Positions 14,982-63,728 of a DNA stretch of 64,000 nucleotides are shown piece after piece (position 1 is the first letter of the stretch; each line of letters begins with the position of its first letter). A program made the translations under genes and the position numbers. Location: contig OZ024743.1 of the NCBI GenBank assembly GCA_964016885.1, positions 195,610,001-195,674,000 of the forward strand, in the 5' to 3' direction. The notes under the pieces were generated by a model. It was not told where the DNA came from, ran no database searches, and saw only the letters and a list, made by a program, of their open reading frames with translations. This stretch comes from Eledone cirrhosa. Lineage: Eukaryota.

Positions 14982-15174
14982 AGGTGTGCTAAGATATCAG
15001 GTGGACCATAACGCACCAGAGTACTCAATACTTAGCGTAGTAGACTGGGTAATAGGAAAAGAATGAGGACCATGACGGCTGAGCTCCAGCCGTTTCGACA
15101 GCTAGATCTGTTCGGATCTAGCTGTCGAAACGGCCGGAGCTCAGCCGTCGGGGCCCAGTAGGGGACTTTTCCTA
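14982..15174 (-). mobile_element. PLE-type fold-back element family A
   Basis: GGACCATAACGCACCAGAGTACTCAATACTTAG arm plus inverted repeat centred ~15111 containing GAAACGG..AGCCGTC. Confidence 0.75.
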
Positions 15175-15189
15175 TTATTATTATATATA

Positions 15190-15384
15190 GAGGGCGGTGA
15201 ATTGGCAGTATCGGTAAAGGGTTGGACGCCATGTTTTCTAGCATAGTTACGTCCCTTTACAGTCTGAGTTCAAATCCCGCCGAGGTTAACTTTGCCTTTC
15301 ATCCTTACGGGGTCGATAAAATAAAGTACCAGTAATGTACTGGGTAATTGCTGGTCTTGTGCCTAAAGTAGAAACAATTATTAC
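15190..15384 (+). mobile_element. tRNA-derived SINE S1, full length
   Basis: GGGCGGTGAATTGGCAGTATCGG (A box), GAGTTCAAATCCC (B box), core and AGAAACAATTATT tail. Confidence 0.88.
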
Positions 15385-15493
15385 ATATATATATATATAT
15401 ATGCATATATTTATACACACACACACACATATATATATATATATATATATATATATATATATAGAGAGAGAGAGAGAGATAGAGAGAGAGAGA

Positions 15494-15568
15494 GAGGGTG
15501 TCCCAAAAATTCACACTTCAACAGCATTCTAATGAAAGTGTGTATACATTTTGGCGTGATACCCTGTA
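15494..15568. mobile_element. Tiny mariner-type MITE remnant
   Basis: AGGGTGTCCCAAAA ... TTTTGGCGTGATACCCTG-TA imperfect TIRs. Confidence 0.45.
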
Positions 15569-18009
15569 TATAAATATATGCGTATGTGTCTGTGTATAAG
15601 GTATCTACATGCTAATTTCATTATCTTCTTAAATACCACTCTTTTTGTCTAAAAAAGATTTCGCAGGATTACAATTTGGCAGTAAACATATTTGTTACCA
15701 TGTATGATCATGTAAGACAATCTACTTAAAGATGCTCCCCAACTTTGAACTACGAAACAGTTTTTAACGCAATTTCCTAAGCCAGAATAGTGCAAAATAT
15801 ATTTGACAATTGTCGAACTGACATTTCGAGAATCTTTATTTATCACATAGGTTTTAATTAGATTCGGTGTTATTGCTCTGAAAACGAGGCAAAGGCCTGA
15901 AAATTCAACTACGTAGAGGCAAATTAGCTTCGAAATTAGATTCTAAATCTATATAAATGAAATCGCATTGAGATTCAAAGAGAAAATTCAAATCTGTTAA
16001 GCTTACTCTTCATACAGTATACGGACAGTGAGTAATGTTCTTGTCCCAGGCACTGACATGATAAATTATCGATCCTTCCATTCTGTACTCACCTCATTGA
16101 TTGCTACACGTTTCAGAAATATTAATGAATGCTGGCATTCATAAAAATAGAATTAATTGCCATGTTCTAGATTTTTTGACAGCTTTTTTCTCTTTGCTTT
16201 TTCCTTGGAGCCTTTTTGTGAGATATGATCAATTTCTTTTGTTTTCATTGATCTGCAAAACAAGTTTAATTATCCTTCGATTAGATCCGTCTTTTCATCA
16301 GCCCAATGAAGAATAAAAAACAGACTAACATTTCTATATATTTTTTGTTTGCTTTCGAATTTAAATGGAGTTTTCTTTAACTAATTCTGCTATGCTGAAA
16401 ACTGTCCTTGTGATTTAAATAGATGTATTTATATATTTCTAATATTTTGTAATTATTTTATTTCATTCAAATTTGTTTACTTGAAACGTACAACAAGTGG
16501 GTTCAGTCGAGTAAATAAATGAATGAACCTTCTACTCAAATATACATTTTAATATCATTCCAACAATATATGAAAATACTGCAGATAAATCATATTTTAT
16601 TGAAGGAAGATTCTATCTTTGTAAAAGTATTAAAAATAAAAAAAGCCAAATTTTGACAAAATGTATACTTTTATAAGAATGAAAAAATAACATAACTTCA
16701 TTGGGAATAAGCTTTTGCTTGCTTCTGAAATTCCAATATGGCATCCTGTATTTAGGTTTTAGGTGTAGGGAAATAACATTAATACACAATGGAAGCATGA
16801 TACAATGAATGTGCAAAAATACAAAGAGCTGTTAAGATCTTGCAGCAAACAATAGAATATGTATTTTATTCTTTATCTGGGATCTTTTATAGAAACTTAT
16901 CGTATGGATTAGATGACGAATAAGTTTATTCAAAATATGCAGGAAAATAATTGCCATAGGGGAATATTTGCTTCGATTCAGGCAACGGTAAATAAAAGAA
17001 TAGGTTATGGGTCTCTTGGGTTATAGAATAGATAATTAAAAACAGAGCTTCATTAGAATATATGCAACTCATTAGAAACTGTCAAAACTATGGAGAAATG
17101 TATGCAAAATTCTGAGATATTTTTCATAATCGACATTATTTTATTGCAAGCAAATAATACAGAAATATGTTGAAATTTAGGAAATTTATTCTGATGAAAT
17201 CGAAAAGAATATTGAGTTATTGATTTACAACGAACTATAACATATAAGGAACTATCGATAATTATTCTACATAAAGAAATATCAATACATTGATCAAACT
17301 TACAACTATTTCATTGGAAACAAGATTCCCCTAGAGGCCTTTCACGCTTTCTAACATATTAAATTTCCTTTCGGTGTAATAGACAAATATTCTTTAGAAA
17401 AAAAATCTTACAAATAACATTTCCTTCTAAGTATAAGCGACCATTCTAGAAGTGAAATTTATCAGCCTGATTATTTGTTCTCCCCTCACCACAGTTTATT
17501 TTAACAGAATACACTTGCGATGTGCTACACATATTTAAAAATTATATTAATAATTTATCAGTTTTACTGCAGCCATTCGTTTTTGTAATTCAATCAACAT
17601 ACAGTTAGGGTGTTGAATATCTAGGGAGTTTTGATTGAACATAATTTTAGCAGCAATTCTCAATCCATCTGCTGAGAATATAAACTAAAGTTTGTAAAAA
17701 AAGTTTTACATAAAAAAAACTTTTTTCTTGCTTAGATCGGTGCAATTATTGCATATCTATCCTTTCACTGAAAGGTGACAGTTTATTTGTTTATTCATTT
17801 ATTTATTTGTGTGTAAAGTCCTAACGTCTTATTTTGAAGCTGGAGAAAAATAGATTAATTTCCGGAGCCAGTCAGTACAAAAAGCCGAAAACTGAAAAAG
17901 TTACTTTCTGTTATGAAGCTAAATATTATATGCAATTCTGTTGTCAAAATAAGTTTGAGTAAAATAGGGACTAGAAAATTAGTGTTTTTGTTTGAATTAT
18001 TTGCCGAAT

Positions 18010-18341
18010 TACTCTCGGGTCTTGAATAGCCCCCCCCCCCCCCTCACACACACACACACACACTTATTAAATTTTCAGATTTGTTTCCTCCACCTTCCAT
18101 TCTTATTCCAAAGCACATTATACTTGGCAAAAAAGTACATTACTAGAAATACCATACGTTGTGAAATGAATAGGATGGGTTGGGGTCTGAATATGTAACG
18201 TAGACGACTAACTCTATTCAACGGAGAAAACCTAGAAACATTATTGATTTTCTAAGCTCCAATCGCTTATTCTAACACCTACCACTTATGCCACCCCTCC
18301 CATGCTTATTCCACTCCCTGTTTTTGGAACCCGAGAGTTTA
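18010..18341. mobile_element. MITE (Tc1/mariner-like TIRs)
   Basis: TACTCTCGGGTCTTGAA ... TTTGGAACCCGAGAGT inverted termini. Confidence 0.55.
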
Positions 18342-62235: not shown

Positions 62236-62519
62236 CGTGAATATAAACACAATATGATAATAAAATAAAATAAATAAATTAAGTTACAATATTTTAGGGT
62301 ACATTAAAATATGTATGTAACTGCATAAATAGGTACTCGAAAAGAAGGGGTAAAATAAAGGAACGGGTAAAATAAAAAAAAATAAAATAAAATAAAACGT
62401 TGGGGGGGGGTACAGGAGAAGGTGCGTGCGTCTATCCGATATACTACACACAGGTGTTATGAGATGCCAACTTGTGTCCGTGTATAGAACAGATAACAGT
62501 AACAGAACAATGATAGAAC

Positions 62520-62712
62520 AATAATTGTTTCTATTTTAGGCACAAGGCCAGCAATTAACCAGTGCATTACTGGTACTTTATTTTATCGACCCCGTAAGGA
62601 TGAAAGGCAAAGTCGACCTCGGCGGGATTTGAACTCAGATCGTAAAGGGACGTAACTATGGTGGAAAGCATGGCGTCCGACCCTCTACCGATACTGCCAA
62701 TCCACCGCCCTC
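62520..62712 (-). mobile_element. SINE S1, full length, with apparent target duplication ATGATAGAACAAT
   Basis: Reverse-complement S1; ATGATAGAACAATAAT occurs at both 62510 and 62714. Confidence 0.88.
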
Positions 62713-63143
62713 TATGATAGAACAATAATGATATTAATAATTACTGTTCCAAAGTGGAACAGGTGTAGAGTATATAGTGACGATTGACGGTGTACACATT
62801 CAATGTGACGCCTGTCACGGTCGCCATGGGGCATGTCACCGTGGCTCGGGTGTGCTGTTCTATACGTTTATTTCACAGGACCGGGTGGCAGTGCGGCCCA
62901 GTGTCAGCCGGTCAAGGCCCATGCGGTATATCTTCCAATGTTGTGTGCACGGACACCGTCATCATGGCATGGCGTCAGGTCCCCTAATCCCGCTAGGCCA
63001 ATCGGATCTGTGCGTACTCATTCCCATGCACCCTCCCTGCGTCACCCGGCGGTTTCCATGCCCCATGGAGATAGTCAGACTGAAGGATGACGCCGTCAAC
63101 CTGAAGTCTGAAATTATCATGACATGCTGACACCAGAGAAGAT

Positions 63144-63430
63144 GCTTGAAACTACTACATCGTTCCTTTGTCAGTGTTGAACAAAAGGCGACGATGGTTG
63201 CCCAACACTGTACGGCCTAATTCGGGCAGTTTGTTTACAAATAAACCGAACATTATAATAAATGTTCGGTAAACCCATACGTACATATATATATGTGTGT
63301 GCATGTATGTATACATATAAATACTACTGTACGTATGTATACAAATATGTATGTACCTATATATACTTATATTTAAGTATCAGCCGTACTAAGAGTGATA
63401 TATGAAATTTCGTTTTATTCTTTTCCATTT
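63144..63430 (+). mobile_element. 5'-truncated copy of the 473-bp retrozyme-like family
   Basis: Starts inside HHR stem II (GCTTGAAACTACTACATCGTT) and ends at the family 3' end GAAATTTCGTTTT..TTTCCATT-(TA)n. Confidence 0.8.
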
Positions 63431-63531
63431 ATATATATATATATATATATATATATATATATATACATATATATATATATATATATATATATATATATAT
63501 ATATATATATATATATATATATATATATATA

Positions 63532-63728
63532 TATAGGAACCAGTAAGACCCCGACAGCTGAGCTCAAGCCGTTTCGACGGCTAATTCTGGACTTAGAATT
63601 AGCCGTCGAAACGGCTTGAGCTCAGCTGTCGGGGTCTTACTGGTTCCTATTACCCACTCTACTACCTCAAGTATTGAGTACTTTGGTGCGTTATGGTCCA
63701 CCTGGTTCCTTACCACATTTCCTTCGTT
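63532..63728 (+). mobile_element. PLE-type fold-back element family A
   Basis: Palindrome 63532-63649 centred ~63591, tail to CCTTCGTT-(TA)n. Confidence 0.82.

Follow-up and report, generated by a model that had tools for sequence, protein, structure and literature searches.

Short palindromic insertions of a Penelope-like element with a variant hammerhead in Eledone cirrhosa suggest priming at two fixed sites on one RNA

We analysed a stretch of 64,000 nucleotides (nt) from the genome of Eledone cirrhosa (assembly GCA_964016885.1, contig OZ024743.1, positions 195,610,001 to 195,674,000 of the forward strand; the window), and searched the same genome (3.0 Gb) for related sequences. Six palindromes and two fragments in this window are short insertions, or stumps, of a Penelope-like element (PLE) whose parent appears to encode a hammerhead ribozyme. 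Each full window copy is an asymmetric palindrome embedded in an AT-rich repeat. We propose, with a probability of roughly 0.6, that such copies would result from two cDNAs primed at two fixed sites on one RNA, run off at its 5' end and joined head to head.

Element positions are counted backward from the 3' end (0), with a long natural copy, L073, as reference. On this scale the ribozyme core lies at -182 to -176, the 5' strand of stem II at about -175 to -167 and loop II at -166 to about -130; the 3' strand of stem II runs to -122, GAAA begins at -121, stem III spans -118 to -100, the cut falls between -99 and -98, the 3' side of stem I covers -98 to -79 and the tail -78 to 0. We call tail arm the direct arm that ends at 0, and inverted arm the tail-less arm whose outer end is -79. 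Insertions have outer ends at 0 and -79, one of each, and their inner ends pile up at -132 to -144; a rarer class has both arms ending exactly at -98, and there is an excess of G just upstream of A-139.

The two outer ends are almost equally frequent. Patterns of equal length retrieved 19,982 arms stopping at -79 and 19,931 continuing into the tail, and 241 of 260 tail-less anchors at the sampled loci stop exactly at -79. Short head-to-head pairs join a tail arm to a tail-less arm in 163 cases, two tail arms in one case and two tail-less arms in none, with 10 unclassified (overlapping loci may have been counted twice); a few long pairs carry two tails (L251, L278, L289). A partner arm was located for 72 of the first 100 tail matches on contig C1, and several of the remaining 28 show, by eye, a diverged partner or a later disruption. 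Pairing of two arms is the rule, though not proven obligatory. In the RNA both outer ends are preceded by UAU, matching a (TA)n end, and ATAT comes next after the inverted arm in 148 of 170 cases and after the tail in 180 of the 210 that were scored, a further 19 of these 210 being the element's own continuation. All six window inverted arms share the same outer base (...CCTAT, -79), followed by the AT-rich repeat, a feature overlooked by an earlier note made from the letters of this DNA.

Could a single folded-back cDNA account for both arms? The earlier note had proposed that cDNA synthesis halts at the ribozyme and that the strand then primes itself by snapping back on the hairpins there. 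Of the 72 pairs, 29 have an inverted arm that extends further upstream and 30 a direct arm that does so, and 13 show no difference; where the difference exceeds 10 nt, the inverted arm is the longer in 21 (20 once a mis-paired case is removed) and the direct arm in 9. The long pairs that were checked divide into five and five, as in L066, where the direct arm stops at -230 and the inverted arm at -1548. A folded-back cDNA cannot copy absent sequence and a tail-less cDNA cannot generate a tail, so each arm must have been templated separately. Subfamily tags agree between the arms of 126 pairs and disagree in 7 (chance agreement 24%), pointing to one RNA or one source. That both arms share these tags would also suit snap-back, as would overlaps of at least 4 nt in 23 of 115 pairs, about 8 of them on the hairpin arms of stems II and III, two of the six window copies included. 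However, snap-back cannot lengthen the inverted arm beyond its template, and still less by more than 1 kb (L066 and L109/L110); it leaves the fixed outer end at -79 unexplained, the inverted arm beginning at a site of its own; and 62 of the 115 junctions are blunt or contain inserts, while at least 6 of the long overlaps are alignment over-extension. The longer inverted arms largely refute the snap-back model, which we consider highly improbable.

The junctions themselves are varied: besides the 23 long overlaps, the 115 pairs comprise 30 overlaps of 1-3 nt, 15 blunt joints, 21 inserts of 1-3 nt and 26 of at least 4 nt. Stem II/III arms are used as microhomology at about 8 of the 115. What survives of the earlier idea is that hairpin arms act as joining microhomology only, in a minority of copies. 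Two-site priming, as judged from these outer ends and arm lengths, is very probably correct.

Where do the cDNAs stop? Inner ends of 100 unbiased tail arms fall at -133 to -147 in 53 cases, earlier in 33 and later in 14. Stop rates were derived from 299 arms at loci not picked by upstream patterns (loci 1-110, 196-200, 271-300 and 321-335 were excluded). Per nucleotide they are about 0.008 around the cut, 0.006 in stem III, 0.012 in the 3' strand of stem II and 0.122 from -132 to -147, then 0.009 and finally 0.002 beyond -147. Among 219 arms that reach -132, 200 end by -147, within 16 nt that belong to loop II and not to a helix; 16 arms pass the core. Genome-wide, 11,539 insertions have both arms past -135 with at most 30 nt between them. 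The junctions are thus concentrated inside the ribozyme, as the earlier note held, but they do not support stalling at its hairpins.

The modal inner end is A-139, within TTAGT/TCAGT, which resembles the insect initiator. A TATA-like TATTTAAA lies 29 nt upstream and is kept in younger subfamilies. Just before A-139 the template carries T or C; genome-wide, insertions show G there at 2,722 places and A at 605; in this count T was excluded one base further up, which removes the commonest partner-derived G. Sampled arms give a G:A ratio of 25:9 at -139 versus 33:92 elsewhere. An untemplated G is an accepted mark of cap copying in L1 and SVA (PMC4859970), and PLE start sites have been located in the pseudo-long terminal repeat (pLTR) (PMC8557442). 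The pile of ends would fit run-off at a capped start followed by trimming during joining, and run-off at a capped start is in our judgement probable.

A variant of this scheme keeps the two priming sites and has the reverse transcriptase (RT) stall in loop II at a structure or a bound protein, with no run-off at a capped end. A weak sub-hairpin could form there (3' strand at about -143 to -136), the ends are dispersed over 12 nt, and L151 pairs an arm at -143 with a 1.1-kb partner. Yet RT traverses stems III and II, which are GC-rich, with 0.006-0.012 stops per nucleotide, the G excess is specific to -139, and copies that arose by template jumping repeat the same end. Such a stall seems unlikely. 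Two further candidates were discarded: the peak at -143 that suggested a second start site was mostly alignment over-extension and shrank under strict end calling, and a splice acceptor at TTTAG/TCCAG would fit poorly, as the sequences upstream of -139 are heterogeneous and G exceeds A, which is not what exon ends should give.

A second class of ends coincides with the predicted cut. We found 339 insertions with at most 14 nt between the two stem I strands. Examined by eye, the first 50 listed include 25 with both arms exactly at -98 and an untemplated insert, 12 flush and ambiguous, and 13 others; only 2 are symmetric stops at -100 or -101. The extra base is mostly A or T. In 115 unselected pairs both arms end at -97 to -99 in 3, against 0.2 expected (P = 3e-4), and the share of insertions with both arms exactly at the cut is about 1%. 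In template-jump copies the 5' end recurs: L284 and L287 show it twice at about -98, L290 twice at -137/-138 and L272 three times at -142. Repeated ends and the cut class would be the expected trace of a physical RNA end, and provide indirect evidence of germline cutting by a PLE hammerhead with a non-canonical core. Ribozyme cutting in vivo is, on this evidence, quite likely.

These ends also bear on the idea that the insertions began as long inverted copies and lost their central part afterwards. The instability of long palindromes is well established, microhomology junctions recur and kilobase-long arms are rare, all of which speaks for this idea. Central deletion would not, however, leave the two arms ending at the scissile bond next to an extra A or T, nor add a G at -139, and inverted arms of 1.4-1.9 kb persist (L073, L195). 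We regard it as very improbable.

The ribozyme can be reconstructed from longer arms. Upstream of GAAAC the parent has ACCCC, followed by UUGANAA or CUGAGAA and next by stem II, which has strands CGGCUA/UAGCCG, a closing G-C pair and a loop II of about 40 nt. Cores in 54 distinct core-spanning arms are TTGANAA (30), CTGAGAA (12), TTGAAGA (2) and others (10), with no CTGANGA; the core matched 3,614 places genome-wide, with CTGANGA in none of the first 100 listed. RNAalifold (18 copies) recovers stems I-III and the three-way junction, and 97% of 432 hammerhead cells are paired versus 29-55% when slid. The three-way junction, core boxes, G10.1-C11.1 pair and NUH site of a type I hammerhead are all present, and the parent thus probably holds such a fold with a variant core. 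U3-A8 is a known variant of PLE hammerheads (Cervera and de la Pena 2014, PMC4209133). Stem I is prolonged by a distal AUA-GGAA/UUCCUAU helix whose last base is -79, which places the inner RT start at the foot of the ribozyme. Rfam returned no hammerhead for the window among the best 150 of 263 matches, the matches being microsatellite noise. A search for CTGANGA 4-34 nt from GAAAC gave 47 matches at unrelated junctions, which we attribute to chance flanks.

The earlier note held that inversion deletes a CUGANGA core. It is literally true that no copy retains CUGANGA, but the parent never carried it, and the fragment at 43303-43463 keeps the whole ribozyme, with TTGAAAA. The note's proposed check on full-length parents does find a core upstream of stem II and a stem I of ACCCC/GGGGU, though the core is UUGANAA or CUGAGAA. 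Its other suggestion, comparing inversion ends with the predicted structure, puts the pile in loop II and leaves hairpin arms the minor role described above.

Several points weigh against our proposal. Start site and cutting are both read from genomic insertion ends. Inner ends spread over about 12 nt and not on one base. L189 and L151 pair an arm at -105 or -143 with an arm near -1,000; one short RNA cannot yield this, and some events seem to have involved two templates or to have terminated early. The initiator match is to an insect consensus, and the TATA-like sequence 29 nt upstream of A-139 is not kept in all subfamilies. Some of the genome-wide G is still supplied by the partner (CTGG joined to AGTCC), A being supplied likewise; in the sampled arms, at junctions with a spacer only, once loci picked by the CTGANGA pattern are removed since that pattern forces G, G:A is 9:5 at -139 versus 13:25 (P = 0.065). 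As to the ribozyme, covariation gave 0 compensatory pairs (18 copies, 89% identity), single copies fold weakly to the hammerhead (z -0.9 to -3.1), and of five minimum free energy structures one shows the complete three-way fold. Poor cutting would be expected of the C3/A8 subfamily, yet 7 of 25 cut-class copies bear its tag; some U3-A8 copies share this tag as well. In an anole PLE, ribozyme mutants left insertion in vitro unchanged, and RNA ends at the cut were not observed (PMC11167929).

The proposed sequence of events would be as follows. A GIY-YIG protein would cut both strands of a (TA)n target and each 3' end would prime on the RNA, helped by the UAU that precedes both start points, 79 nt apart. 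The usual template would be a capped transcript beginning near A-139 in loop II; such a transcript would lack the core and be unable to cut its own 5' end. RT starting at the 5'-proximal copy of the two sites would run off after about 60 and 140 nt. Read-through RNA with the whole ribozyme would either be cut at -98, giving the short class, or be copied further, giving the long copies (about 5% of arms). The two cDNA ends would finally be fused by host end-joining, through overlaps of 0-3 nt, short insertions or microhomology between hairpin arms. For the anole PLE, two RT start sites delimit the tail, cutting and extension affect both target strands, and a dimer is predicted (PMC11167929).

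The family is abundant. Exact matches number 21,315 for a 32-mer of the ribozyme 3' half and 19,505 for a 35-mer of the tail, with 0 for reversed controls, which bears out the earlier claim of a repeated family; we count at least about 20,000 insertions, mostly stump-sized. A 28-mer at the start of the open reading frame (ORF), with up to one mismatch, occurs at just 152 places versus about 20,000 tail matches. Could the stump itself be a palindromic, non-autonomous element that a small number of masters spread in complete form? The very high copy number, the recurrence of a few junction sequences and the existence of tandem mini-units speak for this, but junctions are highly diverse within each subfamily, as expected from the independent inversions that the earlier note had claimed, and tags match those of long copies; we find copying from masters hardly credible. 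The mini-units, of 273 and 257 bp, occur in tandem at L296-L300 (G000:C3:214146556 onward) and L272. They consist of the element from -160 or -142 to 0 plus the first 115 nt past the tail, and join at the same point just inside the ORF; they may derive from rolling copying of a short RNA. Non-LTR (long terminal repeat) retrozymes have tandem units each with a complete hammerhead; the window copies are single inserts, and the mini-units of L272 and L296-300 start at -142 and -160, without the core.

In longer copies a 1.3-kb 3' untranslated region (UTR) connects to an open frame of 710 codons with the motifs RWR, DKT, YRDD, CxCx5C, VIY..YIG, CxxC and CxH, which agrees with the Penelope origin inferred earlier. 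At many of 30 loci around the ORF start, the tail runs through a short 5' UTR into the ORF, so that the unit measures about 3.6 kb and the pLTR is a partial tandem. The element therefore has the single ORF of endonuclease-bearing (EN+) PLEs, RT then GIY-YIG endonuclease (YRDD and VIY..YIG, by motif), and a pLTR made of a partial tandem, an inverted 5'-truncated copy and a tail. Pfam gave no family match for 7 frames, parent protein included, at E 0.01. Homologues of about 700 amino acids number 402, with one RVT_1 match among the 120 listed; the motifs that read RWR, DKT, CNCPDRSIC (CxCx5C), CNLC..E and CKH in the parent occur in 107, 111, 112, 118 and 118 of these 120. The protein features listed for the Hydra clade, an RWK motif, DKT and not DKG, a CxCx5C linker, and CxxC and CxH around a conserved E/N, match those of the parent (Craig et al. 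2021, PMC8557442). We file the element as Hydra-type by protein motifs only, because its hammerhead is a variant lacking the canonical CUGANGA.

Table 1. Copies of the element in the window (element positions in brackets)
Feature	Window position	Strand	Composition
Two-armed stump, older subfamily	14982..15175	-	tail arm 14986-15110 (about -135 to -13); inverted arm about 15111-15175, ends -79; arms partly assigned by eye
Stump	21990..22211	-	tail arm 21990-22132 (-142 to 0); 15-nt spacer; inverted arm 22148-22211 (-142 to -79)
Stump	40722..40917	+	inverted arm 40722-40777 (-79 to -134); tail arm 40777-40917 (-140 to 0); overlap 1 nt
Stump	42058..42220	-	tail arm 42058-42176 (-118 to 0); inverted arm 42171-42220 (-128 to -79)
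Stump	51312..51451	+	inverted arm 51312-51338 (-79 to -105); tail arm 51333-51451 (-118 to 0); 6-nt overlap at stem III
Stump	63533..63729	+	inverted arm 63533-63593 (-79 to -139); one extra T; tail arm 63595-63729 (-134 to 0)
Tail-less arm with entire hammerhead	43303..43463	+	stem I; core TTGAAAA 43358-43364; stem II; GAAAC 43421; stem III; predicted cut site after 43443; ends near -79 within AT-rich sequence
Single tail arm	55567..55644	+	starts -125; internal deletion in tail; no partner arm found

The six copies and two fragments listed in Table 1 are all present where the earlier note had placed them. Its constant start of the 3' arm does not hold for the copies it placed at 42058 and 51311, which begin at ACGGCT with no GAA, nor for 40722 (GCAAC). 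Fold-back points do differ from copy to copy, as it said, but four of the six have the ends of both arms at about -129 to -142, which is the 3' portion of loop II, outside stems II and III. A 6-nt AGCCGT/ACGGCT match forms the joint in 42058 and 51311 only; at 42058 this overlap stems from stem II/III complementarity, and the inverted arm extends further upstream than the tail arm. The inverted arm of the 63533 stump has its inner end at -139, the proposed RNA start.

Other hammerhead-like and repeated sequences occur in the window. Positions 21057-21260 (+) encode a C-terminal fragment of a related PLE protein (tblastn E 1e-7), and a compact hammerhead-like motif of U3-A8 type follows at 21576-21602 (+); its stem II measures 4 bp and its loop 3 is palindromic, so that this is apparently a second family with the variant core. 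At 49084-49741, inverted arms of 175 nt in AT-rich flanks surround a complex 308-nt middle, with a U3-A8 hammerhead-like motif at 49210 (-); this is probably a multi-part insertion of another PLE family. A head-to-head palindrome at 54645-54998 has 171-nt arms, 12 nt apart, with CTGATGA in each, and many related matches at the sampled loci; this family, whose arms keep the core, offers a useful contrast to the stumps. A short palindrome at 27170-27290 adjoins (TA)n and has its centre just upstream of CTGATGA. Minimal hammerhead-like motifs are seen at 50266 (-), with CTGATGA plus an extra base and a palindromic loop 3, and at 57560 (-), of U3-A8 type. A tandem array at 5667-7800, with units of about 470 bp and CTGATGA in each, could be a retrozyme-like candidate; a diverged inverted relative lies at 34853-35076. 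Finally, an abundant repeat family resembling a short interspersed element (SINE), presumably akin to an octopus SINE, is found at 9209, 14815, 15245, 18807, 51658, 51841, 61435 and 62520.

Taken jointly, the results lead us to suggest, tentatively, that PLE inverted pLTRs and tails might be made by obligatory two-site twin priming on one RNA, from a promoter inside the hammerhead, with a braking effect on transposition. If so, the mRNA 5' end would carry only half a ribozyme, while cutting by a full ribozyme at the 3' end would remove the priming sites downstream. Promoter and ribozyme would jointly divert most events towards palindromic stumps of 200 bp and so restrain full-length transposition from within, and RNA ends of both kinds, capped and ribozyme-cut, would stand recorded in the genome to the base. 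The roughly 20,000 young insertions yield predictions of the same precision: RT is expected to start at 0 and -79, and the RNA to have a capped end at -139 and a cut end at -98. The family is also a large source of short genomic palindromes. Formation of PLE inverted repeats and tails, and the role of the hammerhead, are stated as open questions (PMC8557442, PMC11167929). Element type, inverted architecture and U3-A8 core are already known. Our literature search found no twin-priming account of PLE inversions, no prior description of this family and no start site inside the ribozyme, although the Hydra lists of PMC8557442 and Fig. S2 of PMC11167929 may bear on novelty.

Self-priming, to which the snap-back model is akin, is a published idea for head-to-head inverted pLTRs, and requires an antisense template (Arkhipova et al. 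2013, PMC3846280). Our findings argue against it. The product is the same, a head-to-head inverted pLTR with an optional tail, a palindrome at the junction and TATA/Inr (initiator)-like motifs in the pLTR, but in Eledone the symmetry of arm lengths and the fixed second outer end favour two target-primed cDNAs. The Poseidon PLE of Anolis (PAc; Frangieh et al. 2024, PMC11167929) shares two fixed RT start sites bounding the tail and AT-rich targets, and both target strands were extended in vitro, as we propose for the Eledone element. The PAc paper reports no strand preference for the start site and no sign of cutting in vivo, and does not discuss inversions; in Eledone, by contrast, an insertion draws on both sites, one per arm, and some copies form a class that terminates at the cut.

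L1 twin priming (Ostertag and Kazazian 2001, as cited in PMC4859970) also has both target ends priming on one RNA to give an inversion. The Eledone arms overlap into a palindrome and both of their sites are fixed. In L1, the position of the second priming site varies, and there is no overlap between the two parts.

The Schistosoma PLE hammerheads (PMC4209133) have U3-A8 in place of C3-G8, a palindromic loop 3 and the G10.1-C11.1 pair in common with ours, which differs by a stable stem III of 5-6 bp, a long loop II, a stem I prolonged as far as the inner RT start, and the existence of a C3/A8 subfamily. With the C-terminal EN+ PLEs of the Hydra clade (PMC8557442) the element shares a single ORF with RT then GIY-YIG, the RW-basic motif, DKT, CxCx5C, CxxC and CxH, (TA)n targets, a pLTR hammerhead, and an inverted 5'-truncated copy with a tail. 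Its unit of 3.6 kb compares with less than 3 kb for most members of that clade and its 79-nt tail with a typical 30-40 nt (PMC8557442). It is further set apart from the clade by a non-canonical core, a loop II of about 40 nt and at least 20,000 insertions, mostly stump-sized.

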